Source: an uncultured Acidobacteriota bacterium
Lineage (GTDB): Bacteria > Acidobacteriota > Terriglobia > Terriglobales > Acidobacteriaceae
Direction: 5' to 3'
Length of the DNA: 64,000 nucleotides
Assembly: GCA_963849065.1 (NCBI GenBank)
Contig: CAWKFM010000003.1
Span: 44,292-108,291 of the forward strand
Each line of letters opens with the position of its first letter. Position 1 is the first letter of the stretch. Shown piece after piece: positions 43,738 to 64,000 of this stretch. A program made the translations under genes and the position numbers. The notes beneath the pieces are model-generated. The model was not told where the DNA came from. It saw only the letters and a program-made list of their open reading frames with translations, and ran no database searches.

Positions 43738-43812
<75 letters not shown>

Positions 43813-43849: not shown

Positions 43850-43906
43850 GCCGTGAGGGGCGCCTGCTCCTCGATTTTGTCCAGTCTTGCAGGATTCGCT
43901 GGAAGG

Positions 43907-43981
<75 letters not shown>

Positions 43982-46368: not shown

Positions 46369-46575
46369 AAATTTCCTCTCGGTTGGAAAACATACCATAC
46401 ATAGTCATTATATTCCTACAATGATTTTTATGTACGGGCTGGAGGGCCATCATTGGCAGGTGAAATCGCCGCGCGACTCCACACTACTCCGAGAATCGAT
46501 ACGCCGGATGACGGACGGCGGACTGGCGATGAGCGGGATGCGAGGTTTGCGTTAGTCTTAAGGGAGGAGACCGTG

Positions 46576-47397: not shown

Positions 47398-47523
47398 TCG
47401 ACACGGCTGCTGAGTTGGATGCCAATTCTCCGACGAACGCTGAGTTTAGCTGCCGCCGCCGTTACCGCCCGTTGATTGTCGGTAGGTTTGTCGTACCATT
47501 ATATCGGCCGCACATGGAGAATA

Positions 47524-48168
47524 ATGTCAAACCTTGATTGGTTCTTCCGCAGCAGCCGTTCCGCACCGAACCGTGGCGAACGTTTCAGCCAGCTCTACTT
47601 GCTACGTAGGGACATCGACACTTGTTTCGGAGTCAATCCAAATACAGGATTACCGTTCTGCGTCGTAGACCCGACCACAGGTGCGCGCACCAGCTGCGAG
47701 GCGATCTGGCCTGGCACGATGGCCATTCTTGCTGGCATTGACCTTCTTGGCAAGTTCCGTGCGGGGACCGACGTAACTCGGGGTCCGGGTAGTGTGAGTG
47801 TCAGGCAGCGATTCGTAGATTTTTCAAGGCTATATCTGAGTCTCTCGGAGACAGACGCATATCTGGTCTACCATCTGCGGAACTCGTTACTGCACTCGTT
47901 CGGTCTAAATTCCGAAAAGACAGACGACAAAGGCACAGTCACCGCGACGTACGACTTCATTCTTAGCCGCGGTGCGGGCAAGCTGCTTGAACATTTCACA
48001 AGCGACTTCTACCGCGTGGACGTGCAGTGTCTTCGTGACCTTTTCGAACGAGCTATTGCGAGGTACGAAGCCGAGCTACGTGACAATTCGCGCAGCGATT
48101 ACCAAGATCTTAATGATAAGTTCAATGCAATGTTTCCCAAGCACGCGAAGCCCATGAGCGTGATTTAG
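47524..48168 (+). CDS. hypothetical protein (214 aa) with an Rx4H HEPN-like motif
   Basis: ATG 47524 follows GGAGA. The motif YHLRNSLLHSFGL fits the HEPN R-x4-6-H signature. Confidence 0.6.
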   Translation: MSNLDWFFRSSRSAPNRGERFSQLYLLRRDIDTCFGVNPNTGLPFCVVDPTTGARTSCEAIWPGTMAILAGIDLLGKFRAGTDVTRGPGSVSVRQRFVDFSRLYLSLSETDAYLVYHLRNSLLHSFGLNSEKTDDKGTVTATYDFILSRGAGKLLEHFTSDFYRVDVQCLRDLFERAIARYEAELRDNSRSDYQDLNDKFNAMFPKHAKPMSVI

Positions 48169-48293
48169 TTAGAACCTACTTCGGGACAACTTCAGCATAC
48201 GGGCAGCTGTACAACCCGAAGGCTATTGAGTCGGGTGCAATGCGCGGTCTTAGAGGCCGTCGAGTGTGACTTGGCGGAACCGGAGAAGAATGA

Positions 48294-51200
48294 ATGGCGC
48301 TTTCATTGGATGATCTAGTTAAGGACGGTAGGCTAGAACGGCTGTTTTCCAAGCACTGCCGCGACTGCGCTCTGCAGCTTTGGGTGCTACAGATAAAGTC
48401 CGACAACGGAATCGAGAACCGACTCCTCTACGGACGACTTCTTCCCTACAATTACTCTAACAACACTTGGTCCGCCGCGGAGGATGACCATTTTGAATCG
48501 GTTGGGGAGCACAAGGCTCAAATCATTCGACTCAGCCTGTACATCAAGAGCACCGGCACCGAGGCGTTACTGAAACATCTGAGTGAGGGCCACGCCGTGT
48601 CGCGCATCAGCGAGGACTTGAAGCTGACGCTGTCCCCGAAGCTAGCCGAGCGGATAGGAACGACAACGCTCAGTTCACACTTGGTTTATCGCCCAGTCGC
48701 CTACCTGCTGAATCGAGATTCGCGAGATCGAACCGCACCTTTGAGTCCACACGGGGGCGCGGGCGCATTCAGTGCATCTCTGACTCCAACCGATAAGATA
48801 GCATTGCTTCGCATTGGATCGGATTGTGATGAGGCTTTGGCGACATTTATTGTCAAACAGCTGGATTTCGACACTGGCTTGGACTTCGGGGACAGAGATC
48901 TCGGCCGATTAGGTGATTTGGAGCTGTTGGTCTTTCCGACCCTGGACGACAGCGAGCGGGAACTGTTGAGCGTGGGCTGGAAAGTAAAACCCAGAGTTCT
49001 CGCCGTGAAGCTGAATCCGATTCAACTCCCGCGCTATGACAGATTCCATGTCCGTCTGAGTGTATTCAACGACAGCCAACTCGTTCATTCAAGTATCGCA
49101 ACTGTCGAGTGCGTCGAGGGCCGTGAATTTGAGTGCGAGTTCGAGGTGCCTGAGCAACTGCGCACGGTTGTCGACGAAACGGAGGTCGAGATTCATGGAT
49201 CATCCTCGATCAACGACGACCGAACTTGCGATCTGTGTTGCAGATGGCGGGTCGGCTATGTACGGGAAATTACCGTCAACGGCCATGTGAACGGACGAGG
49301 AGGTGGCTCTGTCCGGCTCGGCTGGCTCGAAAAGGTGACAAAATCCGCAGCCGCTTCGAAACGGCTACAAGCGGCTCAGACCATCAATCAGGGAGGCACG
49401 GGGTTTTCGACTCACGTGGGAGACCGAAAGGCCGATCCATGGGTTCCCATTAACCGTGGCGTCAGATCACTATTTGCCCGAGTGCATCCGCCGCAGTCGG
49501 ACGGACGTTTTTTTGAACGTCTGAGCGAAGGCAGCGGCTTGGGACGCTTGGAGTTTGTGGAATGGGTAAAGGCCCTATTGGTTAGGCACCAAAATCATCA
49601 GGTCATAATTTTTGACCCTTTCTTTGAGGACGCAGGCATTGGACTCGTCGTTCCAAATGCGGGGAGCCACGGCGATTACATCGTTTTTACATCGCTGCCC
49701 AAGCCCGCAACGCAAGAAGCCAGCACTCGGATCAACAATCTGCTGGCTAGCTGCGAGCAGCTCAAGCCTTTGATGAGGGGGATCAGATTGCGCGTGTACG
49801 GTCTGAAGTACGGAACACTACACGACCGTTATTTCCTAATCGTCGGTCAGGACGGATTACCAACCGCCGGCTTCCATCTCTCGAACTCCATCCAAAAGGC
49901 AAATGAGAATTACCCTCTGCTGATTACGCCGATACCTCCTGACGTCTTGCTCAAGGTAAACAAATACGCGTCCAAACTTCTAACGCAAGCATTTGAGGCA
50001 TTTTCTAGTACCGAAGCCGATACTTCAAGGGTGCAGCTACTCTTCGACTCGAAAGCCGCGCTCGCTACGTCCCCTAAACGCATTGAACCGTTGAGGTTTC
50101 TCGACAAAGGCGTCGCTGGCGATGTCCTGGCCGGGTGGACGGGGGAGCAGTCGCTTCGGAGTTTGGAAGGCGACGCCCTTAGGGAGAAAATGAGGGACTT
50201 GGGCTTGCTGAACGGCGAATCGCTTGTTCTAAAGGAGGCCCCTGGGCTTAAGGGCTGCGTCGATCAACAGGCAGGGAACTTCACGAACTTCGGCGCCAAA
50301 TGGGACGTACTCGGCGAGATCCTGGCCAACTCGCATGCGGGAAATACGATCCATGCAGTCGAGCTATCGGCGGAAACGGATTTTCTGACCTTTTTGGCTG
50401 AGTTTTTGAGCGGCTCATTTGGTCGAGTACATAACGACGAGGTCGATGCACCAATCGCGCACGTCGCTAGCACCTACTTCAAAGACGCTATTGAAACGCT
50501 GCTTGCCGCATCCCATCAGCCTGAGCACTTTTTCCATCCCGTTAAGTACGCCGTCCTGAGCTGGTCGGAGTTCTTCGCCGTACAAATCCTGTGGCACCAC
50601 GCTCCAGCTGCATTACTTTCAATGACAGAAGCGCAAGCTGCAACAGTGCCGGAGGATAGTAGGCAATCCGATGCGGTTAAGCTTTCCTTGCTGAGTCAAA
50701 TAGTGAGTGAGATCGCACTCGGGGCGCAATTCGGACTTGCCGGCTTACAGCGGGACCGACTGATTTGCAGCCCCAATGGCTTACTTAAGTGGATGGGGCT
50801 GAATTCTCTCGAATCGCAGCTCCAAAAACCGAATGGCGTGCGCGAGGTCGTTCAATATACGGCGTCGTTCAGTCACAGGGAGAGGATACAGGTACTGGGT
50901 TGGATGACCCAACACTCTGCGGGGCGACAGAATGGCGAGACTATTTATCGTGGTCTGATCGATTCTCTCCATGAGGTTTTACCGCGGGCGCTAACCGCGG
51001 AGGATGCTGATCTCTTGGTGGATTCCATGCGCGGACATATGCGGGCCCTAGGCTGGGGTGAGCCATGGCTTTATCGGGACGTAATATCCCCTCTGTTCGT
51101 AGATGGACGCGTTTCCGCAGATGACCTTTGTCGTATTTGGGTCAAGGAGTTGCTCGCTTATTTGGAGCAAGCCCTCAGGGATGAAACGGGCATCTTCAAG

Positions 51201-51578
51201 AGAAGCGCAGAAGGCAGGGTCACAGAGGTAGCAGCGTTTCTGTTCGGTCGCAGCGGCCTTCAGCAGCAAAGGGAGAGCGTAAAGGTGCTTAGGTCAGTAC
51301 TCACCAGAGTTCGGCGAGACGTTCATCAGCCTCTAGCTAGTACGTCGAACTGGAACAAATGGAACATTTCCATAATCGTTGCAATGTGGATTTTCGCTTT
51401 TACGAAGTGGGCCGCGCACTTCCTGGTGAAGCCTAGCGAAATTGAACCGGAGCTAGAACGACTTTCAACTGACGCACGTCTCGTTGCCCTCGTCAGGCCG
51501 GTAATCGACTGGCAGTCAGACCGAGGTGTAGAGCCAGGCGCGCTTGCACAGTTTATAGAAGAAGTGGGGGCAATCTGA
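48294..51578 (+). CDS. large hypothetical protein (1094 aa) with a central MIT_C/PLD-fold-like module
   Basis: ATG follows GGAGAAG. The motif pair QVIIFDPFF ... GTLHDRYFLIVG resembles the xDPYx...HDRxI pair of the MITD1 C-terminal PLD-like domain (from memory). The large flanking N- and C-terminal regions are unassigned. Confidence 0.7.
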   Translation: MALSLDDLVKDGRLERLFSKHCRDCALQLWVLQIKSDNGIENRLLYGRLLPYNYSNNTWSAAEDDHFESVGEHKAQIIRLSLYIKSTGTEALLKHLSEGHAVSRISEDLKLTLSPKLAERIGTTTLSSHLVYRPVAYLLNRDSRDRTAPLSPHGGAGAFSASLTPTDKIALLRIGSDCDEALATFIVKQLDFDTGLDFGDRDLGRLGDLELLVFPTLDDSERELLSVGWKVKPRVLAVKLNPIQLPRYDRFHVRLSVFNDSQLVHSSIATVECVEGREFECEFEVPEQLRTVVDETEVEIHGSSSINDDRTCDLCCRWRVGYVREITVNGHVNGRGGGSVRLGWLEKVTKSAAASKRLQAAQTINQGGTGFSTHVGDRKADPWVPINRGVRSLFARVHPPQSDGRFFERLSEGSGLGRLEFVEWVKALLVRHQNHQVIIFDPFFEDAGIGLVVPNAGSHGDYIVFTSLPKPATQEASTRINNLLASCEQLKPLMRGIRLRVYGLKYGTLHDRYFLIVGQDGLPTAGFHLSNSIQKANENYPLLITPIPPDVLLKVNKYASKLLTQAFEAFSSTEADTSRVQLLFDSKAALATSPKRIEPLRFLDKGVAGDVLAGWTGEQSLRSLEGDALREKMRDLGLLNGESLVLKEAPGLKGCVDQQAGNFTNFGAKWDVLGEILANSHAGNTIHAVELSAETDFLTFLAEFLSGSFGRVHNDEVDAPIAHVASTYFKDAIETLLAASHQPEHFFHPVKYAVLSWSEFFAVQILWHHAPAALLSMTEAQAATVPEDSRQSDAVKLSLLSQIVSEIALGAQFGLAGLQRDRLICSPNGLLKWMGLNSLESQLQKPNGVREVVQYTASFSHRERIQVLGWMTQHSAGRQNGETIYRGLIDSLHEVLPRALTAEDADLLVDSMRGHMRALGWGEPWLYRDVISPLFVDGRVSADDLCRIWVKELLAYLEQALRDETGIFKRSAEGRVTEVAAFLFGRSGLQQQRESVKVLRSVLTRVRRDVHQPLASTSNWNKWNISIIVAMWIFAFTKWAAHFLVKPSEIEPELERLSTDARLVALVRPVIDWQSDRGVEPGALAQFIEEVGAI

Positions 51579-51599: not shown

Positions 51600-52826
51600 C
51601 TATGCGGCAGCCATGGGAATCACCTCACCGAACGGTGCCGGATGATCCTTGGTGGCCGCCCATAGGACTGGATGGTTCGGTGCGGCGTCTGGAAAGGAGC
51701 CCTCAAGGTCGGTGAAGACCACGAGCGCCTGCGGCTGGATCGAATGCTCCTCGATGTATTCAAAACAGGGGCAGAAGCTGGTCCCACCGCCGCCTACTGG
51801 TTCGAGCGTAATCGGCTCGCCCTGTTCGAAGACGGCGGCGTTATGGACCCTGGTGTCGAAGTAGAGGACATGCACCCGCTGGGGCCTCCGCTCCGAGATG
51901 ATGGAGTTCAGTTCATCCTGGAAAAGCCCGAGCTGGCGGCGGTTGATCGAGCCGGAGCAGTCCACGCCGACCACGATTTCACCCACGCCATCCTTGCGAA
52001 TGCTTGGCAGGTACAGGCCTGAGGCAATGTGGCGCCGGTTGGGAGACGACCAGGAGTAGTCCTCGGGGATTGCCGCGGCGAATGAATTCCGGAGTGCGGC
52101 CCGCCAGTCCACGGTTGCCCGATCCGCCGCCTCCACGGCACGGCGCATGCCGCCGGGAGCTTTGCCAGCCATGCGAGCGACCAATTCGGCCTGTTCAACA
52201 GCTCCGGTCCAGCTCATCTGCTGCTTCTCGATCTGGTCGCTGGTCGCCGACGCGCCTTCCTTGTCGGGGTTGGGCGCATCGATGACCTGGCCAAAACCGC
52301 CGTCCGTCACTGGAACCTTGTGCGCTGGAGCCCCTTCGTCTCCCTGGGCCGAAGGATCTCCGGACCCGGAATTCGTGGAGCCGTCGCCACTGCCGCCGGC
52401 AGCGTCGCCGTCTTTGTCCTCGGCGATCAAGTTGTAGATCCGCTCTGCGCTCAGGTTCCGAAATGCCGGATCATAGAGTGCACCGGCAGGGAGAGCGAGG
52501 TTTGCATCCCGAACGAGCGGGTTGATGGCGTAGTCGCAGGCGACGTTCCAGCGTTTTGCCGAACGCGTTCCCCGCCGGGTATGGTGTTGCAGTGCCGGAT
52601 GCATGACTTCGTGCGCCAAGCAGCCAAGCAGCTCCGGCGGCGTCAGTTTCGCCACGAATTCAGGGTTATAGAACAGGGAGACGCCATCGGTCGCCATGGT
52701 GTCGATCGATGGTGTCTCCACGTCCTTGAGCCGCAGAATCAGAACCCCAAAGAATGGGAAATCGAGCAGCAGTTTTGTCCGGCCTTGCTTGAGCCGCACG
52801 GCTGGGGAGAGTGTTCTTGCAGTCAT
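51600..52826 (-). CDS. VWA-domain protein with N-terminal putative metallopeptidase domain (DUF2201-like)
   Basis: HEVMHPALQHH (HExxH), VACDYAINP, and VWA MIDAS-like VGVDCSGSI. Alternative start at 52913. Confidence 0.75.
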   Translation of the reverse strand: MTARTLSPAVRLKQGRTKLLLDFPFFGVLILRLKDVETPSIDTMATDGVSLFYNPEFVAKLTPPELLGCLAHEVMHPALQHHTRRGTRSAKRWNVACDYAINPLVRDANLALPAGALYDPAFRNLSAERIYNLIAEDKDGDAAGGSGDGSTNSGSGDPSAQGDEGAPAHKVPVTDGGFGQVIDAPNPDKEGASATSDQIEKQQMSWTGAVEQAELVARMAGKAPGGMRRAVEAADRATVDWRAALRNSFAAAIPEDYSWSSPNRRHIASGLYLPSIRKDGVGEIVVGVDCSGSINRRQLGLFQDELNSIISERRPQRVHVLYFDTRVHNAAVFEQGEPITLEPVGGGGTSFCPCFEYIEEHSIQPQALVVFTDLEGSFPDAAPNHPVLWAATKDHPAPFGEVIPMAAA

Positions 52827-53099
52827 AAGTTGGCCCCGTGTGGTTGCTTCAGTTCTGGCAATGCGCTTGCCATTCTGATTCGTATTTGGTTGGTGATGTC
52901 TGGGATACAACAAAAGTGGACTTCCAAATCATTGGCGGGCTGTAGTCTATTCGTGCGAACAGTAAATCACGCGGTCCCAGCGAGTAGCTTCCTGTTTTTG
53001 CCCGTCTTAGCAGAACTGCTCACACTAATGTGATTTTGTGTAATTCCTTTTTGTCGTTGCAGAGTATTATTATTTTTTCCAAAAAAGTGATAGGGAGTC

Positions 53100-54923
53100 A
53101 TGATTGAACATCTTAGTGTGAGCCGTGCAGCCTATTTCTACAGGCGCAAGAAGCGTTTCTCAAATGTCGCGATCGACACGCTTTTTAAGACGCTGCGGTC
53201 GAATGCCAGTACGCCTTCAAGGAACTTATTCCGGGTCGATCGCGTTGCGTTCAGGAACTCGAGATATTCTGCAATATGCTTTTCGTTCGAGCGTTCTCCC
53301 GCATTCCTCGACAACGAAGCCGAAGTTATTGAGTGTATCTTCGGGTTTTTACTGATCGTGGAGAAAGGCGATTTCGTAGCCGTTCTTAAGTCAGGTCTCG
53401 ATCTCCCCTCGGCCTTCAAGTCTAATTATCTCGACAAGGTCGGCAGCGAGCGGGTCGAGCGCGCCATCGCCCGACATGATGCGGTCTTCGAGAAGCTGCG
53501 ACTTAAGAATATGTCTACTTCGAAGCTCGCGCTGCGCTCCAAGACGCTTGAGGCCACTGATCTGGTAAATGCGGTGGCGACGTCAAGCGCCAGCCGCTTC
53601 GCGCCGCAGGGCTACAGTGTGCGGCGGTCCGATGGTACCTATTCGGCGACGCCTAGTACGGGACGTATCTCTATCCGCGCTGACCGGGCAGGCTACGAGG
53701 AGATTGTACGTTGGGCCAGCGAGGTTATGGATTTGCTCGCAGCCGACAGTGGAGAGATCTCGGCCTTCATCCGAAACTTCGCTCGACCGATCGACCTGTC
53801 TGCGATCCCCAGTGGCGTGAGACCAACTTATGTTGCAATCGACGTGCCGAGTCTTGCCAGCGTTTTGTTGGAGGCGGGGGAACGTACCGTCCGGCTTGTT
53901 CGGCAAAATCAAAGCAGCTTCGTCGAAATGACCAAGGTCGAGATCGATCACATTCTCGAGGAACTCGACCGAAGCTTCCCCATACAGCCCGAGCAGATAC
54001 AGAACCATATTGTGCATCCGGACGACCAAGCTCGAATCGGCTTGGTTAAAGTGGGCAAGACGCGAATCTCCCTGCCAAGCTTCACGCTGCCCCTGTTAAC
54101 GAGTATTTTCGTTGAAAATGCCGCCCTTCCGGTTGGGGCCGACCCCGACCGCAGGCCACTCACCCGCTATCTCGATCGCGAAGACCTTTTCACCGTCCTC
54201 TTCAACGATTTCGCGCTCGCTTACATTGATGGCTCCTTGTACCGGGACGAGGCGCTCCTCGGCGGAGGCATGGACTTTCTTCGCCATCTACAAGCGGCGC
54301 TTCCGCTTGCCCAAACGACCAGCGAGAAAGGAGAATTCGCTGCTGGCCAAGAAGCATTTGACGATACGTCGGTATTTCGGGCCATCGTCGACGACATTGC
54401 ACGCGACGCTGATGTGCTGCTGTGCGATGACCTTGGCGACGAGTGGGCAGACTTTATCGGTATCAGCACCGTGACTCGTCCTGTGATGGTTAGTTTCTAC
54501 CACGCCAAGCATGGGGAGAGATCGCTCAGCGCCTCAGCCTTTCATGATTCAGTGGGACAGGCAATTAAGAATCTCGGGCGCATGACGCTGCCATCTGAGG
54601 CCATGCCAGCCAAATATGCGTCTTGGGAGACGCCCTATCGCGGCGCCGGGGCAGTAACCGCAATCCCAAGAATGATACGCGGCGGTGGACGGTTAGAGAT
54701 TGAACATAAGATTCAGGAGGTACGTAGCGCGCCAGACCTGCTAAAACGGGTCTTTATTGTCACTTCGTCGCTGAGCCGAGCGCAGGTCGAGTACGCCTTC
54801 ACAGCCGCTGCTGCGGGCGAGCCACTTTCGGCACACTTCGTCCAGCTTTATTGGTTGCTCATGTCCTACTTCTCTGCTTGCACTGAGATCGGTGCGATTG
54901 GCTATGTTGTGTGTCAGCCTTGA
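53100..54923 (+). CDS. hypothetical protein (607 aa) with a PD-(D/E)xK-like C-terminal signature
   Basis: ATG follows AGGGAG in an AT-rich divergent promoter region. VLLCDDLGDEWADFIGIS-x12-VSFYHAKHG fits D...(E/H)xK nuclease cores. The overall architecture recalls the 'sporadically distributed' TIGR04141/DUF6119 family (memory only). Confidence 0.65.
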   Translation: MIEHLSVSRAAYFYRRKKRFSNVAIDTLFKTLRSNASTPSRNLFRVDRVAFRNSRYSAICFSFERSPAFLDNEAEVIECIFGFLLIVEKGDFVAVLKSGLDLPSAFKSNYLDKVGSERVERAIARHDAVFEKLRLKNMSTSKLALRSKTLEATDLVNAVATSSASRFAPQGYSVRRSDGTYSATPSTGRISIRADRAGYEEIVRWASEVMDLLAADSGEISAFIRNFARPIDLSAIPSGVRPTYVAIDVPSLASVLLEAGERTVRLVRQNQSSFVEMTKVEIDHILEELDRSFPIQPEQIQNHIVHPDDQARIGLVKVGKTRISLPSFTLPLLTSIFVENAALPVGADPDRRPLTRYLDREDLFTVLFNDFALAYIDGSLYRDEALLGGGMDFLRHLQAALPLAQTTSEKGEFAAGQEAFDDTSVFRAIVDDIARDADVLLCDDLGDEWADFIGISTVTRPVMVSFYHAKHGERSLSASAFHDSVGQAIKNLGRMTLPSEAMPAKYASWETPYRGAGAVTAIPRMIRGGGRLEIEHKIQEVRSAPDLLKRVFIVTSSLSRAQVEYAFTAAAAGEPLSAHFVQLYWLLMSYFSACTEIGAIGYVVCQP

Positions 54924-55027
54924 AGACCAAGAGTCGAACTGTCCTGACGTAGCATTCCAAAAGTCACGGTTCTTTCGAGCACGTGACTAGCTGGGAGTGG
55001 ATCTAAACGCCGTTGGAACAGCGCATC

Positions 55028-55049
55028 GGACGAGGGTGTCGCCTCGTCC
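55028..55049 (+). terminator. hairpin downstream of the 607-aa gene
   Basis: GGACGAGG-gtgtcg-CCTCGTCC, with no T-tract. Confidence 0.3.
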
Positions 55050-55357
55050 ACGGGACGACGACTTTATACTTCTGAGATACTGCAATCGCGCGACTGGACG
55101 TGTCTATGCTGACCATACTTCACCCGTTTGAACCAAGACGACACTGCAAATATGCGAATAAACCTCGGCAGGAAGTCGGGCATGAATGATAGAGAATCTT
55201 GTCAATGGCTGGAAACGCCCCATTCGAGAACAATTTGCCATTGCCTGGCGGACAGATTCGCCGCACAATCGAAGTAAGATCCACAAATCTGGTCGGTAGG
55301 GAATAACAAGGACCACATGCGCTGGGCCGTAGGCGGCTGGAGAAACAACGATGCTCA

Positions 55358-56716
55358 ATGCGCACCCGTAGGAGCGAATGCGTGAGCCTTTACAACGACC
55401 AACAAGAGTTCCTGCGCAGCTTACGCGATCTGATCGAGAACCGTCATCGCAAGTTCGCGGGTGCGCAGTTTAGAGTTGCGTTCGTCCGCGATGAAAAAGG
55501 TGTAAACCAATTCCTCACCGGATGCGCACTGTTGCTTGAAAATCAAGCAATCTCCCGTCCTGCACAGGACTATAGGTACATTGTATTGGCGGAGGAGTGG
55601 GTAGAGGGTGACGAGGCAGTCCTGCACAGGATCGAACAGATTGTCAGCGGCACAGGAGCAATCGCTAATGCAGCGGTGGGCCGCACATTTACGCACGCCA
55701 CGCTGACGCGCAAGTTTGATGCGGCTATACGGGGATGGGGAGGTTGGGAATTCTCTAGTCGCGTGGACCACACAGCCCAGGAGCGGGAGACTTACCTGCG
55801 TCAAGAACCATTGCTTGCGTTTGGGCTGAGGCCCTATAACTCTGCTTTCGAGGCCATCCTAAGATGGGTTTTCGAGGAAAAGAACACCGATTTCTATCCG
55901 CCTGGAAACAGAGCTCCGAACCAAGGCGAGTTTCTTACACTGGTCGCCGACACGCGTGCTCGGATCGTGAGGGCTGAGTGGCTGCCAGGTCTCGTCAACG
56001 CCGAAGTTGAACTGGGAGTCGATCCAAGAGAGGTTGAGGCTCAGTTTCTATTTGCAGGGGCGGAAGACGATACCCGTACACTGAACACGGGTTCGCTCTC
56101 CTTAAAGTGTGAAGTCCCGGAAGGCACGCGCACCACGAGGCTCATGCTGGTCCATTCGACCAATGACTGTATCTCTAAGATCCTACTGAATGGAGAGTAC
56201 GACACATACGGACCTCAGCCGTTGGCTCTCAGTGCAATCAGAAAAGCAGAGCTCGACCTGAAAGAAGGTGAAAACGACCATGTGGAATATAAACCATGGG
56301 TTTCGCCAAAGTCTCCGGAGAAGGAAGCAGAGCTCGTCGAAACAATCATCGCATTTGCCAACACTGGTGGTGGACGGCTTTATGTTGGAGCCGCGGATAG
56401 CGGCAACCCACTCGGTGACACGGCTCTGTCGAAAGCGTTCAAGGTTGAATCCGATATGGCCGCGATCCAGCAGGCTGAGAGAATCAAGAGCCTCAAACGC
56501 GAGAAGATAAAGCCAGTGCCCCCGGTCCGAGTGGAACTGATCACGGTTTTTGGCGAGCGCCTAGTTCTAGTTGAAGTCGAGCGCGGGAGCAGGCGACCAT
56601 ATTCAACATTTGAAAACAAAGTATTCGTCCGCAAGGGCGGGAGTAACAGGCTCGCGGATCCACACTCGGAGCTTCCCGCCCTCAGCCCACAGTCTCTGCT
56701 GCCGGATGGCTCCTGA
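55358..56716 (+). CDS. hypothetical protein (452 aa) with a C-terminal AlbA_2 (Schlafen-like, 'divergent AAA') domain
   Basis: EGENDHVEYKPW...ETIIAFANTGGGRLYVGA...RPYS...VFVRKGGSN matches the AlbA_2 pattern. The ~300-aa N-terminal region is unassigned. Confidence 0.65.
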   Translation: MRTRRSECVSLYNDQQEFLRSLRDLIENRHRKFAGAQFRVAFVRDEKGVNQFLTGCALLLENQAISRPAQDYRYIVLAEEWVEGDEAVLHRIEQIVSGTGAIANAAVGRTFTHATLTRKFDAAIRGWGGWEFSSRVDHTAQERETYLRQEPLLAFGLRPYNSAFEAILRWVFEEKNTDFYPPGNRAPNQGEFLTLVADTRARIVRAEWLPGLVNAEVELGVDPREVEAQFLFAGAEDDTRTLNTGSLSLKCEVPEGTRTTRLMLVHSTNDCISKILLNGEYDTYGPQPLALSAIRKAELDLKEGENDHVEYKPWVSPKSPEKEAELVETIIAFANTGGGRLYVGAADSGNPLGDTALSKAFKVESDMAAIQQAERIKSLKREKIKPVPPVRVELITVFGERLVLVEVERGSRRPYSTFENKVFVRKGGSNRLADPHSELPALSPQSLLPDGS

Positions 56717-56880
56717 TTTGGAGGATGTGTGAAGGAATATAGCGTCGATTTCACCAGCTCTCCCTCTGGTCGGAAGCCGATCACTGTGGCAATAGGATTG
56801 GTTTCCAATGCACTGTTGAAACTCGATACAGTGGTTGTTGGATTGTATTCGGTCGATTGAAGCACTCGGTACGGATCTGC

Positions 56881-56942
56881 AACCATAAAATGGCCGCTAA
56901 TGATTACAGCCATAAATTGGCCGTTCTGGCCAACTTATGGTT
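56881..56942. repeat. three copies of a ~14-nt motif (two direct, one inverted) between convergent genes
   Basis: AACCATAAAATGGCC (56881-95), GCCATAAATTGGCC (56909-22), and GGCCAACTTATGGTT (56928-42), which is the reverse complement of AACCATAAGTTGGCC. Confidence 0.6.
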
Positions 56943-56964
56943 GTAGTGTCAGGGGAAAGATTTG

Positions 56965-57996
56965 TCATGCGATTAGCTCCATGTAATCCGACATTCTCAC
57001 CAGAATTTGATCCACTCCGGGTGCTGGCGCGGGTTGGGGTGCCGGATCGGTTGGCTTCGGATCGGGCATGTGGACCGCCATGGCCGGAACCTCCGCTGTT
57101 CCGGAGACATGGCCGATGGCCGCAGATTCATCCAAGGCGTCATAGCCGCGATGCTTCATCGCGTGCTTGATCTTGGCTGCGAGTTCGTTCGCGATTCCCG
57201 CCGCCCGAGTGCGCGCCGCGGGATGCTGGGCGAGGTCCTGGCGGGTAAACCTGGAGAGCCGGGAGTTTGTCTCCTGCGCGAGCGCCGTTAGTTCTTCGTC
57301 GTTGGTTACGTTCAACCGTGGAACGAGATCGGCGATCTCGGTTACGTTGCGGAGAGTGGACGTATGCAAACGGGCTTTCGGCCGCTCCAATTGCGCGGCG
57401 AGGTGGGCGACCGCCTGTATGAGGCGCGACCACAACTCGGACGTGGCGCGCGTGAGGGACTGCTTCACCTGCTGATCGATCTCGCGGGCGACGCGAGCCT
57501 TCTCCTCCGCGCCAAGCGTGACGCGGAAATCCTCGCCACAGGGAATGGGGAGAATGTCGGTCGTCAGGTCGAACTTCTCAGTGAGCTGCGACCAGTCCGG
57601 GTAGTCGCTATCGCGGTACAGAAGGCCAAGGCTGTTGCGGGCCTGTTCGCGATAGGTTGGATAGGCGTCGAGAAACTCTCGCACCAACTGTTCGAATGCC
57701 GTCTTGAACTCGCTCATCTGGCTGGTGAACTCGAAATAGAGGTGGGACGGGAGCAAGCGGTAGCCCTCGTCCGACCAGGGCAGAGTCACTTTGTAGAAGT
57801 ACTGGCGGATCTGGCCTGCGAGGTTGCGCAGTTCCTCCAGCTTCTCGGCCTGGTCGAGCAGATGCTTGTTGTAGCGGCCGGCGTTCGAGTTTGCTTCGTG
57901 GGACTGCGCTACCTCCTCAGACACCCGCCTGTCGAACTTGCGTGCGCTCCACATCGTGATATGAAGACAGATCAGCATTGCTTTGTCGGAAATCAT
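56965..57996 (-). CDS. DUF3150-like protein
   Basis: N-terminus MISDKAMLICLHITMWSARKFDRR resembles the DUF3150 'WSGRK' start. It lies directly downstream of the AAA gene. ATG 57996 lies within ORF 56965..58230. Confidence 0.55.
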   Translation of the reverse strand: MISDKAMLICLHITMWSARKFDRRVSEEVAQSHEANSNAGRYNKHLLDQAEKLEELRNLAGQIRQYFYKVTLPWSDEGYRLLPSHLYFEFTSQMSEFKTAFEQLVREFLDAYPTYREQARNSLGLLYRDSDYPDWSQLTEKFDLTTDILPIPCGEDFRVTLGAEEKARVAREIDQQVKQSLTRATSELWSRLIQAVAHLAAQLERPKARLHTSTLRNVTEIADLVPRLNVTNDEELTALAQETNSRLSRFTRQDLAQHPAARTRAAGIANELAAKIKHAMKHRGYDALDESAAIGHVSGTAEVPAMAVHMPDPKPTDPAPQPAPAPGVDQILVRMSDYMELIA

Positions 57997-58039
57997 TTCG
58001 TTTTCAAGCCTCCAGACGTAGCCCTGGATCGGTCCAGAG

Positions 58040-59050
58040 CTACGCGAGTAAATCGCTGTGAGTGATGGCGAATTGGGTGAATTCGGGGGTGGTCGCAATG
58101 GCCGGGTCACGGAGCAGAGCATCGCGCATGGACAGGACCTGCAGCTCATCCGGAAGACGCTCGAGGTAGAGCTTCGCCTTCGCAATCGAGCTATCAGTGA
58201 TGCGGCGGCCGAGTGCGGTGGCAATTGCAATCTGGGCCGACGGATCGCTGGGCAAGGGCGCGCCGGTTGGGTTCAGGAGAATCTCGTCAATCGAAGGCAG
58301 GGCGTGAAAAAGGTTAAGGAAGCCGATGAACTCCGCGGCTACGCCGTCACCCACTGCGCCTTGAATAAGGTGCATGAGCAGCATCTCGTAGACGTCCGCG
58401 GTGACGTTGGCCTTCCGGGCGTCAATTCCGTCCATCGCCCTGGATACCATTTCCCAGGAGCGCGGCGTCGGCCAGGCGTTGACACCCGACCGCACGGCCG
58501 AGTCGTGCAACAACTCCGTCCGGAAGCGAAGAAATGCGATGATTTCCGGCCTGATCCCTGCCTTGCCGGCCCAGATGCACCACTCGCCGAGATCCGGTTC
58601 CAGCGTGAGATGCAGGAAGCGGTTGAGCAAAGGGCGCGGCATGGAATAGCTGACGCCACGCTCGGAAGCGGGATTGCCCGCGGCAAGCACCGACCATCCA
58701 TCGGGGAGCCGATAGTCGCCAAGCGCACGATCGAGAACGAGCTGATAGCAGGCGGCCTGCGTCATCGGTGGCGCGGAGGTCAATTCATCGAGAAAGAGTA
58801 TGCCCTCGCCGCCTGTGGGGAGGAAATTCGGCGTGATCCATTCCGTGCGGTCGTCCTTGATGCGCGGCAGACCACGGAAGTCGACGGGATCGAGCTGGAC
58901 GGCGCGTACATCAATAAAGTCGCGCTTCAACTGCTGCGCGACCTGCTTAACGAGTTGGGATTTGCCGACGCCACAGGCGCCCCAGATATGGAGCGCAACG
59001 TTTTGAGGGACTGCGGTGATAAGCGCTTCAACAAGGTGCGAAGGTTTCAT
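58040..59050 (-). CDS. MoxR/CbbQ-like AAA+ ATPase (AAA_5)
   Basis: Walker A GACGVGKS, Walker B ILFLDELT, and AAGNP followed by the sensor region. Confidence 0.85.
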   Translation of the reverse strand: MKPSHLVEALITAVPQNVALHIWGACGVGKSQLVKQVAQQLKRDFIDVRAVQLDPVDFRGLPRIKDDRTEWITPNFLPTGGEGILFLDELTSAPPMTQAACYQLVLDRALGDYRLPDGWSVLAAGNPASERGVSYSMPRPLLNRFLHLTLEPDLGEWCIWAGKAGIRPEIIAFLRFRTELLHDSAVRSGVNAWPTPRSWEMVSRAMDGIDARKANVTADVYEMLLMHLIQGAVGDGVAAEFIGFLNLFHALPSIDEILLNPTGAPLPSDPSAQIAIATALGRRITDSSIAKAKLYLERLPDELQVLSMRDALLRDPAIATTPEFTQFAITHSDLLA

Positions 59051-59410: not shown

Positions 59411-59761
59411 TCATGGGCGGTTTCCCTCGTCCATGAGCGCAGCCACTTCCCGCACCAGGACGGGCAGCTTCGACTGGACGATGTCCCAGACGATGCGTTC
59501 ATCCACCTGGGCATAGGCATGAACCAGAATATTGCGAAAGGCAACGATGCTGCGAAAGTCGGTAATCCTTGCTGCCAGTGTGGCGTCCACGCGGGCGAGC
59601 TGCGCGAGCGCCTCGCCGATAATAGCAAAGGCCCGCTCCACTGCCATACGCAGCATCGCGTCCTGCTGGTAATTCGCAAAGCTCTTGCCGGCCGTGAACT
59701 GCGAGGCCAGTCCGGCGGCCTCCTGAATGTCATAGAGATACTTCCGCGCCTCAAGCCGCAT
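59411..59761 (-). CDS. hepT: HepT-like HEPN (DUF86) toxin
   Basis: RNILVHAY (Rx4HxY). Overlaps the upstream MNT gene by 11 nt. Confidence 0.85.
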   Translation of the reverse strand: MRLEARKYLYDIQEAAGLASQFTAGKSFANYQQDAMLRMAVERAFAIIGEALAQLARVDATLAARITDFRSIVAFRNILVHAYAQVDERIVWDIVQSKLPVLVREVAALMDEGNRP

Positions 59762-60059
59762 AGAGGAGCGCCTTACTTTGCTCGATACTCTGGCGGAAAT
59801 ATGGATTCCTGATGGCAGAACCCACGACAAGATCGACGGATCGTCCGAAGAGTTGCTCCAGCGATTCCTTGAAACCGAAAAATGAAGCGGCATAGCCGCC
59901 GTCCGGCATGGCTTCGAACTCCACCAGAAAATCGAGGTCGCTGTGCTCCGGATCGTAGGCATCGCCGAGGGCCGAACCGAACAGTTCCAACTGGCGGACG
60001 TGAAACTGGCGGCAGAGCTGGATCAACTCAGCCCGATGTTCCGCAATGGTGGAATTCAT
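59751..60059 (-). CDS. mntA: MNT-type nucleotidyltransferase antitoxin
   Basis: ELFGSALGD...DLDFLVEF (GS-x10-DxD minimal NTase motif). Confidence 0.85.
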   Translation of the reverse strand: MNSTIAEHRAELIQLCRQFHVRQLELFGSALGDAYDPEHSDLDFLVEFEAMPDGGYAASFFGFKESLEQLFGRSVDLVVGSAIRNPYFRQSIEQSKALLYAA

Positions 60060-60273
60060 GGTTTCCGCTCTCCATTTAGGGCATATCCCAGCAACTCCCT
60101 ATTGTCGCAGAAGTGCTGCTCATATGCGCATCCGGTATCCGTCGCCATGCTCAAAGCCGAACGGCATGAGCATGTGTAGATGCTAGCGATCCCGGAATGC
60201 AGTAGTCCCACACTCTTTAAGGTCGTCGAGTTCGCGAAGAAATGCACCCCACGGCTTCGGAATACGATCTGTT

Positions 60274-60954
60274 TTAGTCATTGGGCAAGTGCGCCGTAAC
60301 GAGATTGGACAGTACATGCCAAGCCCGCGCTTCTGGTGATCGATTTGTCAGCAACCAGTCTCGCTCCACCGGTGTCATATTTTCCCGGCTGAAGGTGTCT
60401 TCTTTTGCAAGCAGCGATCCGCGCAGAACTTCTTCCTGCCGCGCCAGCTGCGACGCAACTTCTGGCTGCTGTTTTTCTTCCGCGACCTTTCTCGCTAGGG
60501 TTATCGTGAATCCAAGCCGGTTCTGCAAATCACGGACCTTCGCTTCGCGCCGAACCCACTCCCAATCCATTCCGACAAAATGCCTGACCAACCATGGCAA
60601 TCCCTCCGCAACACGCCGATCCAGGTCGGGTTGCGCCAAAGTCATAACCAGAAACTGTGCGGGATTCCAGGAGGGCAAACCAGTTCGAAAGTACCCGTAT
60701 GCTGGATAGCCGAGATTGGACAACTCCTGAGCAAAATCCGCCGGCACCGATTCCGCATCTTTCCGGATAGGTAGCTTGGTCGCATCGAACTCCAGACCAA
60801 GTTTGCATAGTTTCGGTAGCCATTGAGCAGGAACCGGACGTGTTCCATGCTCCCAGAGCGAGACAAGGGTCTGCGATACCCCGAGACGGCGGGCCAACTC
60901 GTGCTGGTTCCATCCATGCTGTTTTCGTAAGGTCCTGAGATCAGCGCTGGCCAT
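60274..60954 (-). CDS. XRE-family helix-turn-helix regulator with an unassigned C-terminal domain
   Basis: LRKQHGWNQHELARRLGVSQTLVSLWEHG. Confidence 0.8.
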   Translation of the reverse strand: MASADLRTLRKQHGWNQHELARRLGVSQTLVSLWEHGTRPVPAQWLPKLCKLGLEFDATKLPIRKDAESVPADFAQELSNLGYPAYGYFRTGLPSWNPAQFLVMTLAQPDLDRRVAEGLPWLVRHFVGMDWEWVRREAKVRDLQNRLGFTITLARKVAEEKQQPEVASQLARQEEVLRGSLLAKEDTFSRENMTPVERDWLLTNRSPEARAWHVLSNLVTAHLPND

Positions 60955-61073: not shown

Positions 61074-61283
61074 TCAGCCATCCCCATCGGACGGAACGGA
61101 TTGGCTCCTCTGAGGACTGGCCGGAGTCTTCCTGGCGACAAGATCCCGCAGCAAGTTGATCTCTTCCCTCTGTCTCACCCAATCCGCGATCAAGGCCTCA
61201 AGCGGCCTACGGGCAATCGATAAGTAGTGGGAGTCGTCGTTGGAGGCAGAAATGTCCAAGAGGATCAAGAGTAAGAAGTTCAT
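61074..61283 (-). CDS. small hypothetical protein coupled to the HNH gene
   Basis: Its ATG overlaps the HNH stop by 4 nt. Confidence 0.3.
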   Translation of the reverse strand: MNFLLLILLDISASNDDSHYLSIARRPLEALIADWVRQREEINLLRDLVARKTPASPQRSQSVPSDGDG

Positions 61284-61777
61284 GAGACTCTCGGTCGGAT
61301 TGAACCCTTGAGGAGGTTGCAGAGCCGATGCGCCGCTTGAATGTTGTCTGGGTGGTCATCGCGCCTTGCCGCTCCCATACCCTTGGGCTCGATGTGGTCG
61401 GGGACCACGTCATTGCAGTCGGTAAGCGGCAGGTGACAGATTCCGCAGTTTCCTTTTTGCGTGAAGATTTTCTGGGTGAGCACTTTCCGCAATTCCGCAG
61501 GCGAGCGAAGTTCCCGGTATCCTCTGGGATGATTCGGGTCGTCGATTCGCTCGACGCCCATTGATAGGCGTCCGGTCTTGGACGCCTCCTCGCGGCCGCA
61601 GCAGAAACGGGAGTGGTGGATGGGACAAGATTGGTTTCGGTGAAGTTTCACGGAAGTGCCCTCGTGTGTTTTGGTGGTTGCTGTGCATATCTTTGCCGGT
61701 GGGGTGTTTTGCTTCGTTCTGCTTCGGTCAAGGGATCGAAAAGCGGAGCGGATCCAGGCGCTCGCTGCGGAGCTCAT
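61280..61777 (-). CDS. HNH endonuclease
   Basis: CGICHLPL...VPDHIEPKG...DNIQAAHRLCNLLKGS (HNH/HNN core). The start is uncertain (61777 or 61561). Confidence 0.7.
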   Translation of the reverse strand: MSSAASAWIRSAFRSLDRSRTKQNTPPAKICTATTKTHEGTSVKLHRNQSCPIHHSRFCCGREEASKTGRLSMGVERIDDPNHPRGYRELRSPAELRKVLTQKIFTQKGNCGICHLPLTDCNDVVPDHIEPKGMGAARRDDHPDNIQAAHRLCNLLKGSIRPRVS

Positions 61778-62051
61778 GCGAATGCGCCTCGATGGAGCTG
61801 GAGCCAGACATTATCGGGCAATCGCCGAGTTGGAACGCAACCTGACTCGAGCGGGTCTGGCCGGCATGAGGCGGGCCAAGCTGGAAGGACGCCACATCGG
61901 CCGCCGCGCCCTGGAACTGGACGAGATCGCGATCCAGAACCAGCGAGCCGAGGGGCGCAGCCTCCGCGGCACCGCCCTGGACCACCACATCTCGACCGCC
62001 ACCATCCTGAATGTTGTGTTTCTTCTGGCCGTTGTGGCAAAGTTGCCCTAA
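61656..62051 (+). pseudogene. 5'-truncated serine recombinase (resolvase/invertase) remnant
   Basis: Only the C-terminal part is present (AIAELERNLTRAGLAGMRRAKLEGRHIGRR...EGRSLRGTALDHHISTATI). No catalytic Ser domain is present, and the upstream space is occupied by the HNH gene on the other strand. Confidence 0.5.
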
Positions 62052-62081
62052 GATTCTCAAGTCAAGCAAACCGGCATTCAT

Positions 62082-64000
62082 ATGCACGCGGCCCCGCTGG
62101 CGCGTGCTCGGCCATGGAGGCCCGTGTTGTCCAATTTCAGTGAAAAAGTCGCGTTCATCTGGTCTGTTGCGGATCTGCTCCGTGGGCCATATAAGCCCCA
62201 TCAGTACGGCAGGGTCATCCTGCCACTCACTGTTCTGCGCCGCCTGGATTGCGTTTTGGAGCCGACCAAGCAGAAGGTTCTGGACCGGCACGCCGCGCTC
62301 AAGGCAGCCGGCAGCATCAAGGACATGGAGCCGATCCTGAACCGCGTCTCCAGACATTCGTTCCACAACACCAGTAAACTCGATTTCCAGAAGCTGAAGG
62401 GCGACCCGGACAAGATCGCCACCAATCTGGCGCACTACATAAAGAACTTCTCCACGGACGCGCGAAAGATCTTCGAGCACTTCGAGTTCGACAAGGAGAT
62501 CGGCAAGCTGGCGGAGGCGGACCGCCTCTTCCTGGTCGTCTCCAAGTTTGCCGACATCGACCTGCACCCCGACGCCGTGCCCAACCACGAGATGGGCTTG
62601 ATCTTCGAGGACCTCATCCGGCGCTTTAATGAAGCGTCGAACGAAACGGCCGGCGACCACTTCACGCCGCGCGAGGTCATCCGGCTGATGGTGAACCTGC
62701 TGTTCACTCCGGATTCCGGAGTCCTGCGCACCAAGGGCATCGTGCGCACGCTGTACGATCCGGCATGCGGTACCGGCGGTATGTTGAGCGTGGCCGAGGA
62801 GTTCCTGCGTGAGCTGAACCCGGACGCCAAGCTCGAAGTCTTCGGCCAGGATTACAACGACGACGCATACGCAGTCTGTTGCTCGGACATGATGATTAAG
62901 GGCCAGTCGCCGGAGAACATTTGCTTCGGCAACAGCTTCACCGCCGATGGGCTGCCGGGGAAGAAGTTCGAATACCTGCTGGCGAATCCGCCCTTCGGCG
63001 TCGAGTGGAAGCCGGAGGCCGACGCCATCGTCAAGGAACACGAGGAGCAGGGCTTCGGCGGGCGCTTTGGCGCCGGGCTGCCGCGCATCAACGACGGCTC
63101 CTTCCTATTCATCCAGCACATGATCTCCAAGATGAAACCAGAGGGCGCGCGGCTGGCCATCGTCTTCAACGGCTCGCCGCTGTTCACCGGAGACGCCGGT
63201 TCGGGCGAAAGCGAGATCCGCCGCTGGATCATCGAGCGGGACTGGCTGGAGGCGATCATCGCCCTGCCGGACCAGATGTTTTACAACACCGGCATCTCCA
63301 CCTACATCTGGGTGCTCACCAACCGGAAGCGCAAGGAGCGCCGCGGCAAGGTCCAGCTTATCAATGCCACCGACCTCTTCCAAAAGATGAGGAAGAGTTT
63401 GGGCAACAAGCGCAACGAACTCTCCGACGAGAACATCGCCGAGATCGTTGGCATATACGGCGACATCACGAAGAATGGCCGTTCCAAGCTCTTTGATAAC
63501 TCCGACTTTGGCTATCGGCAGATCACCGTTGAGCGCCCGCTGCGGCTGGCCTTCCAGGTCACTGCGGAGCGCATCGAGGAGCTCCAGCAGGAGATGGCCT
63601 TCCAGAAGCTGGCGACAAGCAAGAAGAAGGGCAAGGAAGGCCGGCGCGAGATTGAGGCTGGGAAAAAGCTCCAGCAGGAGATCGTTGCTATGCTCGAAGG
63701 CATGGTCAGTGCCACGGCGGAAGAGAGCCGCCCGGCTTTTGAGCAGCGTCTTGCGGAAGAGTTAAAGTTGGCCGAAGTGAAGCTGGCCGCGCCGGTTCGG
63801 AAGGCAATTCTCAATACCATGTCCGAGCGCGACGAGAGCGCGGACATTTGCCTCGATGCTGACGGCAACCCGGAGCCGGACAGCGAACTGCGCGACTACG
63901 AGAACGTGCCGCTCAAGGAAGACATTCGCGAATATTTCCGCCGTGAGGTTCTGCCGCACGTGCCGGACGCTTGGATCGATGAGGCGAAGACGAAGATTGG
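62082..64000 (+). CDS. hsdM: type I restriction-modification system DNA methyltransferase subunit, 3' end outside the window
   Basis: My own translation of this frame: NFSEKVAFIWSVADLLRGPYK, DPACGTGGML (SAM binding), LLANPPFG (NPPF catalytic motif), FLFIQHMISK. The frame stays open to nt 64000, so it is absent from the ORF track. Start candidates are ATG 62082 and GTG 62124. Confidence 0.9.
   Translation, partial: MHAAPLARARPWRPVLSNFSEKVAFIWSVADLLRGPYKPHQYGRVILPLTVLRRLDCVLEPTKQKVLDRHAALKAAGSIKDMEPILNRVSRHSFHNTSKLDFQKLKGDPDKIATNLAHYIKNFSTDARKIFEHFEFDKEIGKLAEADRLFLVVSKFADIDLHPDAVPNHEMGLIFEDLIRRFNEASNETAGDHFTPREVIRLMVNLLFTPDSGVLRTKGIVRTLYDPACGTGGMLSVAEEFLRELNPDAKLEVFGQDYNDDAYAVCCSDMMIKGQSPENICFGNSFTADGLPGKKFEYLLANPPFGVEWKPEADAIVKEHEEQGFGGRFGAGLPRINDGSFLFIQHMISKMKPEGARLAIVFNGSPLFTGDAGSGESEIRRWIIERDWLEAIIALPDQMFYNTGISTYIWVLTNRKRKERRGKVQLINATDLFQKMRKSLGNKRNELSDENIAEIVGIYGDITKNGRSKLFDNSDFGYRQITVERPLRLAFQVTAERIEELQQEMAFQKLATSKKKGKEGRREIEAGKKLQQEIVAMLEGMVSATAEESRPAFEQRLAEELKLAEVKLAAPVRKAILNTMSERDESADICLDADGNPEPDSELRDYENVPLKEDIREYFRREVLPHVPDAWIDEAKTKI

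Follow-up and report, generated by a model that had tools for sequence, protein, structure and literature searches.

A 64,000-nucleotide (nt) stretch of DNA from an uncultured bacterium of the Acidobacteriaceae (GenBank assembly GCA_963849065.1, contig CAWKFM010000003.1, positions 44,292 to 108,291 of the forward strand), hereafter the window, encodes on its minus strand a MoxR-type AAA ATPase, a DUF3150-like protein and a protein combining a metallopeptidase with a VWA domain, the last of which is set apart from its partners by two genes of the opposite strand. Here, we describe this three-gene operon (the triad), compare it with related loci in genomes and metagenomes, and conclude that the two plus-strand genes are very probably the cargo of a non-autonomous, partly decayed Tn7-like transposon that splits the AAA/DUF3150-like/VWA operon. 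The region had been flagged by a first-pass annotation made from the sequence alone. The five genes in question are the following (aa, amino acids).

51600..52826, minus strand: HExxH metallopeptidase and VWA gene, 408 aa (Pfam DUF2201_N and DUF2201)
53100..54923, plus strand: cargo gene 1, PDC-S71 homologue, 607 aa (PADLOC)
55358..56716, plus strand: cargo gene 2, with a C-terminal Schlafen/AlbA_2 domain, 452 aa (Pfam SLFN_AlbA_2, E 5e-19)
56965..57996, minus strand: DUF3150-like middle gene of the operon, 343 aa (sub-threshold Pfam DUF3150)
58040..59050, minus strand: MoxR-type AAA ATPase, gene 1 of the operon, 336 aa (Pfam AAA_3 and AAA_5 above cut-off)

The split operon

The open reading frame (ORF) map places all five genes where the first-pass annotation had put them, and together with Pfam bears out the layout it described: the middle gene begins 43 nt past the ATPase stop codon, and the HExxH and VWA gene of the DUF2201 type follows about 4.1 kb further on, 4,139 nt beyond the DUF3150-like gene, with the two plus-strand genes in the gap.

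The ATPase scores above the Pfam cut-offs for both AAA_3 (31.5 bits, cut-off 27) and AAA_5 (23.8 bits, cut-off 22), its translation shows Walker A (GACGVGKS) and Walker B (ILFLDE) motifs, and it is 94-98% identical to the first protein of contiguous triads (e.g. those of loci L004, L010 and L014). The VWA protein matches DUF2201_N (E 5e-55), the VWA-like DUF2201 (E 6e-30) and VWA_CoxE (E 5e-6), carries an HEVMH motif and the metal ion-dependent adhesion site (MIDAS) motif DCSGS, and is 87-96% identical to the VWA proteins of contiguous triads from residue 5 on. Neither protein has a sequence relative in the PDB. The middle protein reaches 18.7 bits against Pfam DUF3150, below the 24.9-bit threshold and over its N-terminal 110 residues only; sub-threshold matches to the same model occur in 12 of 21 members of its family, with a best E value of 5e-4. 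The name DUF3150-like, which the first-pass annotation had chosen, therefore holds as a remote resemblance and not as family membership. This protein has 754 homologues at E<=1e-10, the close ones all from soil and peat metagenomes, and its AF2 model, a helical bundle with a pLDDT of 70, has no significant Foldseek or PDB neighbour. As a unit, the triad has no match in PADLOC or NCBIfam, and literature searches on DUF3150 and DUF2201 returned nothing useful.

The triad in related loci

An alignment of DUF3150-like proteins was used to retrieve 80 genome loci, nearly all from Acidobacteriaceae/Terriglobales, and window proteins were mapped on all loci with tblastn for the counting of junctions. 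The ATPase, DUF3150-like and VWA genes are contiguous in 68 of the 78 Acidobacteriota loci in which the DUF gene and the VWA start are both visible, and in the unsplit loci the stop codon of the former overlaps the start codon of the latter as ATGA. The junction between the two genes is interrupted in the other ten, each time by different cargo, and homologues of either intervening window gene were found in none of about 120 related loci. Thus, the triad is one module and not a chance neighbourhood of unrelated systems, the two intervening genes are not a conserved core, and the view of the first-pass annotation that a cassette had dropped into a variable hotspot stands, with a mechanism that now appears to be Tn7-like.

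DNA homology to the three loci L004, L005 and L006 (87-89% identical, triad contiguous) ends at 56952 and restarts at 52811. The homology of the triad itself to its relatives is similarly sharp, starting 30-70 nt before the ATPase gene and stopping at the VWA stop codon. More distant homologues on Rhodovastum and Burkholderia plasmids (33-36% identity) also keep the triad intact, beside genes for a type IV secretion system, ParB and toprim proteins; other triad relatives adjoin BREX systems. A genome may hold up to three copies. Because the triad occurs on conjugative plasmids (such as the Burkholderia L003 type) as well as in islands, and a genome can have several copies of it, we regard it as one operon of a mobile-element backbone; the plasmids, the tRNA-associated integrase island and the multiple copies thus support its initial description as a module of the mobile-element type. 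Cultured bacteria that have the operon include Edaphobacter aggregans DSM 19364 and Telmatobacter bradus DSM 23630 (L040, L051 and L043). A megablast of the region against plasmids gave no match.

The public sequencing runs that carry the sequence are soil and peat DNA metagenomes only, with no RNA runs among them. Independent short-read contigs from four soil metagenome runs (X1-X4) span both junctions of the split, and in three runs of one soil study the crossing contigs are specified (one X2 contig covers 52713-56952, and the X1 and X3 contigs cover 56242/55831-57047), so the split is not an assembly artefact. Depth in the metagenomes is 5-8x over the cargo and flanks and 15-40x over the triad genes, which fits many related triad copies in the community; the depth of the triad genes is 3-5 times that of the cargo and flanks. 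In runs X1-X4, contigs diverge exactly at the VWA stop codon (51599/51600). In the soil community of origin, the operon is a module with sharp boundaries and multiple copies.

Ends of the inserted element

Alignment of the window with unsplit loci and with other split loci resolves the insertion into the following parts, all on the minus strand; L1 to L3 and R1 denote copies of a 19-nt repeat, GGCCAATTTATGGTTGTAG.

52812..56951: complete insert of 4,140 bp, devoid of transposition genes (where homology to L004, L005 and L006 breaks off)
56952..56968: the 17 nt that opened the ancestral VWA ORF, now orphaned, ATGACAAATCTTTCCCC (alignment with unsplit loci)
56959-56952: left copy of the flanking direct repeat, CTTTCCCC, within the orphaned VWA start
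56877..56951: left end, with the terminus 5'-TGACA followed by L1 (56946-56928, inverted), L2 (56922-56904) and L3 (56895-56877) (architecture shared with other loci)
52812..52936: right end, degraded (alignment with L013, L016, L017, L064, L058 and L107)
52835-52812: right terminal repeat R1 and terminus, holding the ATG at 52826-52824 (18/24 matches to relatives)
52804..52811: right copy of the flanking direct repeat, CTCTCCCC, where homology to unsplit loci restarts (junction alignment)

Read on the minus strand, the left junction runs ATGA-CAAAT-CTTTCCCC up to the break and TGACA-CTACAACCATAAGTTGGCC-AGAAC-GGCCAATTTATGGCTGTAA-TCATTAGC-GGCCATTTTATGGTTGCAG beyond it, and the right junction runs GGCCAACTTATGACTGCAAGAACA up to the break and CTCTCCCCAGCC beyond it. 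The stop codon of the DUF3150-like gene is the TGA of the ancestral ATGA overlap. The element has TG..CA termini: the left one, TGACA, is intact and followed by three 19-nt repeats, spaced by 5 nt (L1-L2) and 8 nt (L2-L3), and the right one, ...AACA, has one recognisable repeat. The last 24 nt of the two ends are inverted repeats of each other (TGWCACTACA...TTGGCC), and the window holds five copies of the 19-nt repeat against 1.05 expected. The search for flanking repeats around 52.9-56.9 kb that the first-pass annotation had suggested succeeded in part: with default settings it returned only the left-end hairpin and chance pairs, and it was comparison with other loci that revealed conserved transposon ends. 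No homologue of TnsA/TnsB, TnsC/TniB or TnsD/TniQ was detected anywhere in the window by tblastn; accordingly, the window copy is a non-autonomous derivative at best.

A Tn7-like family at the same junction

Nine other loci share this left end (L009, L013, L016, L019, L058, L064, L076, L077 and L107), and seven have the same kind of right end, two to four 19-nt repeats and then TGACA (L013, L016, L017, L058, L064, L076 and L107). Across loci L001-L088, mostly genome loci, close matches to the 19-nt repeat (0-3 mismatches) occur exclusively at split DUF/VWA junctions, and isolated matches with four mismatches lie elsewhere in three (L025, L031 and L081). This end architecture is unchanged across operons just 44-50% identical in the DUF protein. 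Scanning of metagenome contigs with the right-end pattern yielded 34 further loci. The window, the ten split genome loci and about two thirds of the 34 metagenome copies share one junction and one orientation, the VWA gene coming next in these metagenome copies either directly or after a tandem second element, and the insertion point lies a few bases past the DUF stop codon, in the first VWA codons.

Among 13 complete elements, seven are flanked by perfect 5-bp target duplications, all distinct (CTCTC, ATCTT, GATGA, CACGA, GAGAC, AACGA and GACAT), and a further five by duplications that match at 4/5 positions. Locus-dependent duplications combined with TG..CA termini are the hallmark of DDE transposition and not of a fixed recombination core.

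Transposition proteins are encoded by complete autonomous copies in L107 (10.8 kb), L109 (9.7 kb) and L121 (6.1 kb), in which genes for proteins of 897, 398 and 585 aa adjoin the right end and read inward. The 897-aa protein is a TnsA-TnsB fusion (PDB 9bw1_M, E 7e-289; TnsB chains 7svw/8rdu, E 5e-13), the 398-aa protein is TnsC (PDB 8fcu_Q, E 1e-102) and the 585-aa protein is TnsD, with a match confined to its N-terminal 300 residues (PDB 8v32_J, E 4e-54); Pfam adds TniQ (E 1e-16) and TniB/AAA_22. Elements range from 331 bp, in the empty copy of L076, up to 10.8 kb, and small copies without tns genes (0.3-2.7 kb) are common. The L076 copy (934-1264) consists of both ends only, flanked by the perfect duplication CACGA, and resembles an empty derivative of the miniature inverted-repeat type. 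In L058, decayed tnsA/B genes adjoin a CzcCBA efflux operon.

Four loci (L093, L105 at 5793-9014, L106 and L116) contain tandem arrays of two elements at the same junction, of which the newer one presumably lies beside the VWA gene, as expected if the target selector binds in VWA. The relatives carry diverse cargo, including a HigBA-like toxin-antitoxin pair accompanied by a SEC-C protein, a CheB/CheR-PAS protein alongside a histidine kinase, a mer operon, DUF2321 and DUF5677 proteins, PadR and TetR regulators, and MacB/FtsX permeases.

For some copies that share the right end, no VWA gene comes next (L090, L096, L098, L101, L102, which is identical to L111, L109 and L112); these represent either off-target events or a second targeting pathway. 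The autonomous copy in L109 is at such a site, with the perfect duplication GACAT. In L019 (11033-17600), the left end is intact, and the right side consists of some 140 nt duplicated, in degenerate form, from the DUF gene 3'-end and followed by an intact, empty target site; this arrangement is probably a recombination product of two triad copies.

The VWA start codon and the probable selector site

The insertion point lies after the DUF stop codon, which is thereby left intact. The ATG within the right end is in frame with VWA in both operon clades, and where the ancestral protein starts with MTN... or MR..., the repaired one starts with MPVVT... or MTVRT..., and that of the window with MTART.... 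The first five codons of the window VWA gene (MTART) are thus transposon end that replaces the ancestral MTN. The element thus enters an ORF yet rebuilds the reading frame that it interrupts, and VWA retains an intact ORF. Translational coupling of VWA to the DUF gene would be gone, and its transcription would now start within the element or pass through it. A promoter and terminator scan found fewer promoter-like sites than in shuffled sequences and is uninformative on VWA transcription.

The 5' coding region of VWA is the most conserved stretch near the junction, with a majority-base frequency of 0.92 against 0.77 upstream in the close clade; in the distant clade, a conserved block lies at about +30 to +90 of VWA. 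We infer that this conserved 5' coding part, beside the right end, is the putative site of a TnsD-type selector. By analogy with Tn7, TnsD would bind it some 15-45 bp to the right of the insertion point and recruit TnsC and TnsAB, which would excise and paste the element. The window copy would have arrived by such a TnsD-guided insertion or descend from one, and later loss of the tns genes and of part of the right end would have fixed the cargo in place.

Cargo genes

Along its whole length, the 607-aa protein matches the PADLOC model PDC-S71 (E 9e-119; residues 2-607 against positions 4-589 of 589), which is a single-gene candidate. PDC entries are candidate, not proven, defence systems (PMC11514479), and we found no paper that names PDC-S71. 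The PDC-S71-type family comprises 579 homologues at 57-87% identity across phyla, which sit in plasmid-like and prophage-like DNA. In the AF2 model of the window protein (pLDDT 80), the N-terminal 300 or so residues resemble RdgC (Foldseek E 4.5e-5, TM 0.36), which is a DNA-binding ring protein. The C-terminal half contains an invariant DDLGDEWADF...FYHAK motif that recurs in the C-termini of plasmid proteins annotated as DEAD/DEAH helicases. A reasonable guess is that the protein combines a DNA-binding sensor with a nuclease-like effector.

The AlbA_2-domain protein belongs to a rare family of 16 proteins, and two of the three contexts of its homologues lie beside BREX (L126) or near CBASS (L127). 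A two-gene system was considered and rejected: the five homologue contexts (three for AlbA_2, two for S71) never pair the two genes, which, being unlinked elsewhere, are independent cargo. Both genes are most likely anti-phage, and Tn7-like elements often carry defence genes (PMC8649781).

Weighing the alternatives

Several observations weigh against assigning the window insertion to a Tn7-like transposon. The window copy has no transposase genes, so that its identity would follow from its ends and its position, and transposition itself is read from sequence. Its right end is degraded, with 18/24 terminal matches, one repeat unit missing and the inner repeats decayed. The repeat flanking it is 8 nt long with 7/8 positions matching, not a clean 5 bp; CTTTCCCC and CTCTCCCC include the expected CTYTC plus three extra nucleotides (CCC) at the left junction. 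In every copy of the family, L2 and L3 are oriented opposite to the canonical Tn7 layout. Targeting is not absolute, as VWA is not adjacent in seven or eight of the 34 metagenomic copies. Lastly, the rve and Mu-transpos_C matches of the 897-aa protein fall just under the Pfam cut-offs, though its PDB matches are very strong. Because L2 and L3 share the orientation of the right-end repeats, L1 pairs with L2 as a palindrome around a 5-nt spacer, and a simple scan calls this structure terminator-like.

That palindrome also resembles a recombinase core site, and one could suppose that the cassette was placed by site-specific recombination (by a tyrosine or serine recombinase, or in an integron-like manner) at a conserved core, with the repeats as recombinase-binding sites; the island has a tyrosine integrase, and in L006 and L018 a different, duplication-flanked type of insertion occurs between the ATPase and DUF genes. 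We consider this very improbable, and we rejected the tyrosine-recombinase or integron-like cassette, since the flanking 5-bp duplications vary by locus, as after a staggered cut and not at a fixed crossover core, the copies that share these ends have tnsAB-tnsC-tnsD but lack a recombinase, and the termini are TG..CA. Two further explanations are barely credible. That the plus-strand genes belong to the AAA/DUF3150/VWA module as a conserved part has in its favour only their position in the window, and it conflicts both with the lack of homologues of either gene in the related loci, homologues elsewhere lying in unrelated contexts, and with the depth of the cargo, well below that of the triad in the source metagenomes. 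An assembly chimera of two genomes at repeated triad sequence is conceivable, since the community holds the triad in multiple copies, at whose edges contigs break, but the junctions are crossed independently in three runs and show the exact transposon-end structure found in other loci.

If the element is a Tn7-like transposon, it may be either dead or alive. We lean, without great confidence, towards a fixed remnant. An element still mobile, its intact left end and right terminal repeat being enough for mobilisation in trans by an autonomous copy elsewhere in the genome, seems unlikely but is the main alternative: the left end is conserved as well as in the autonomous copies, L058 too has a single terminal right repeat, small copies devoid of tns genes are common, and several triad copies per genome are available. 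Such mobility is at odds with the imperfect right terminal repeat and its decayed inner neighbours, with the atypical flanking repeat, and with the fact that the close clade (about 90% identity) is not represented by an autonomous copy in any locus.

The island around the operon

The remaining features of the window are listed here.

45242-44127, minus strand: tyrosine integrase, after the tRNA genes
45552-45112, minus strand: small ORF overlapping the integrase (ORF map)
46453-51578: genes between the integrase and VWA, encoding a DUF5677 protein, a protein of 230 aa that has no hits and a VPA1262-family protein of 1,094 aa
About 59411-59761 and 59751-60059: HepT/MNT toxin-antitoxin pair, on the other side of the triad
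Within 59411-60954: XRE-type regulator, 226 aa, conserved upstream of the ATPase gene in L010 and L017 (92-96%)
Within 61280-64000: 165-aa protein, HNH-like motif by eye and no Pfam hit, conserved near many triads
61656-62051: resolvase-like C-terminal remnant
From about 62130, running off the window: type I restriction-modification methylase, HsdM-like, with an NPPF motif

Guanine-cytosine content drops from about 0.63 to about 0.54 right after the genes for tRNA-Gly and tRNA-Cys (43738-43981). The tRNA and integrase region marks one end of a genomic island, which extends past the window, and no copy of the tRNA-Cys 3'-end was found inside the window. The operon lies in this integrase island, which is rich in defence-type genes. 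The DUF5677, 230-aa and VPA1262-family genes are likely further island cargo; a DUF5677 protein is also cargo of the Tn7-like copy in L064, and the namesake of the VPA1262 family belongs to the region vpa1254-vpa1262 of the Vibrio parahaemolyticus island VPaI-6, a region that one study replaced by a marker (bioRxiv 10.1101/2023.03.28.534373).

Other rearrangements at triad loci

The junction between the ATPase and DUF genes is a second hotspot, split in 6 of 77 loci by a different mechanism (L006 4495-10001, L018 4490-10001, L016 6373-10001, L009 605-2274 and L081 6467-10001, for example). L006 and L018 share a 5.5-kb insert there (SAM synthetase, FGase and a TPR protein), whose right flank is a degenerate duplicate of the 3'-end of the ATPase gene, as after gene-end-replacing integration. 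At the same junction, L081 contains three consecutive tyrosine recombinases and L016 a Ser/Thr kinase-TPR protein. Elsewhere, an IS21-family element lies within VWA at about codon 54 in L005 (11187-13650), and the DUF gene is truncated by a DDE transposase gene in L017 (10915-12500). In L053 (5321-7558) and L054 (5325-7562), another AAA-VWA pair, a distant one, lies 1.4 kb upstream of the triad, with proteins 38% and 28% identical to those of the window and no DUF3150-like gene between them.

Relation to known systems

The closest solved relative of the autonomous copies is the core of the CRISPR-associated transposon (CAST) of type I-B from the Peltigera membranacea cyanobiont, whose TnsABCD transpososome is represented by PDB 9bw1, 8fcu and 8v32 (PMC12585508). 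The autonomous relatives encode the same three proteins in the same order beside the right end, and share with it the TnsA-TnsB fusion, itself a known variant (PMC10293859), TnsD-type homing and a 5-bp duplication. They differ in that no CRISPR-Cas module or second TniQ turned up in them, although no targeted search was made, and in that no match exists for the C-terminal 280 or so residues of their TnsD, as would suit another DNA target. Their hosts also belong to a different phylum, Acidobacteriota, their attachment site is the VWA start in a mobile-element operon and not the chromosomal site of that CAST, and the window copy lacks all three tns genes.

The family resembles Tn7 of Escherichia coli at attTn7 (glmS) in its orientation-specific insertion at a set distance from a conserved coding sequence (PMC8649781), and also in its TG..CA termini, transposase-binding repeat arrays, right-end location of the tns genes, 5-bp duplication, tandem arrays and a target gene predicted to remain functional. 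Unlike Tn7, which lands downstream of glmS and touches no ORF, it enters the first VWA codons and replaces the start codon; the orientation of the left-end repeats L2 and L3 differs as well, and no TnsE was seen in the family. The 'res hunters' Tn5053/Tn402 are Tn7-superfamily elements with TniQ-type selectors that target res sites on other mobile elements. Tn6022-type elements insert within comM (PMC10293859). The targets of both differ from that of the present family, and comM is disrupted, whereas VWA would be repaired by the element's own ATG. In two surveys of Tn7-like elements (PMC10293859 and PMC8649781), neither VWA nor MoxR appears among the attachment sites, and the acidobacterial hosts number only four. 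The mechanism is a known one with two unusual traits, homing into the operon of another mobile element and donation of a start codon to the interrupted gene.

For the triad, the comparison group consists of MoxR AAA+/VWA pairs such as RavA-ViaA, CoxD-CoxE and CobS-CobT, and of the vWA-MoxR conflict systems proposed by comparative genomics. Like these, the triad encodes a MoxR-type ATPase with a MIDAS-bearing VWA protein, co-oriented and together in the unsplit relatives; unlike them, it has an HExxH peptidase domain (DUF2201_N) at the N-terminus of the VWA protein and a helical DUF3150-like protein between the ATPase and VWA.

What looked like a puzzling split system is accounted for by a known mechanism, and the conserved, sharply bounded AAA/DUF3150-like/VWA module is flagged as an unexplained backbone function of plasmids and islands. 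Our confidence is evenly balanced on the wider proposal that the VWA start is a previously undescribed Tn7-like homing site, through which a transposon rides other mobile elements, turns their operon into an integron-like platform for collecting cargo and keeps VWA alive through a start codon of its own; it would be such a rider because the triad operon is on islands and plasmids, in several copies per genome. If this is true, the platform holds tandem arrays, its cargo ranging over defence, toxin-antitoxin pairs, metal resistance and signalling. Looking for the 19-nt end repeat beside a DUF2201 gene is an easy way to locate variable cargo, with candidate defence genes among it, in the Acidobacteriota, for which very few mobile elements have been described. 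The TnsD described here shares its core with the solved TnsD and differs in its C-terminal part, so that the pair could help in the study of target-specificity swaps, and Tn7 biology would gain both an attachment site inside the operon of another mobile element and a transposon end that rebuilds the start of its target gene.

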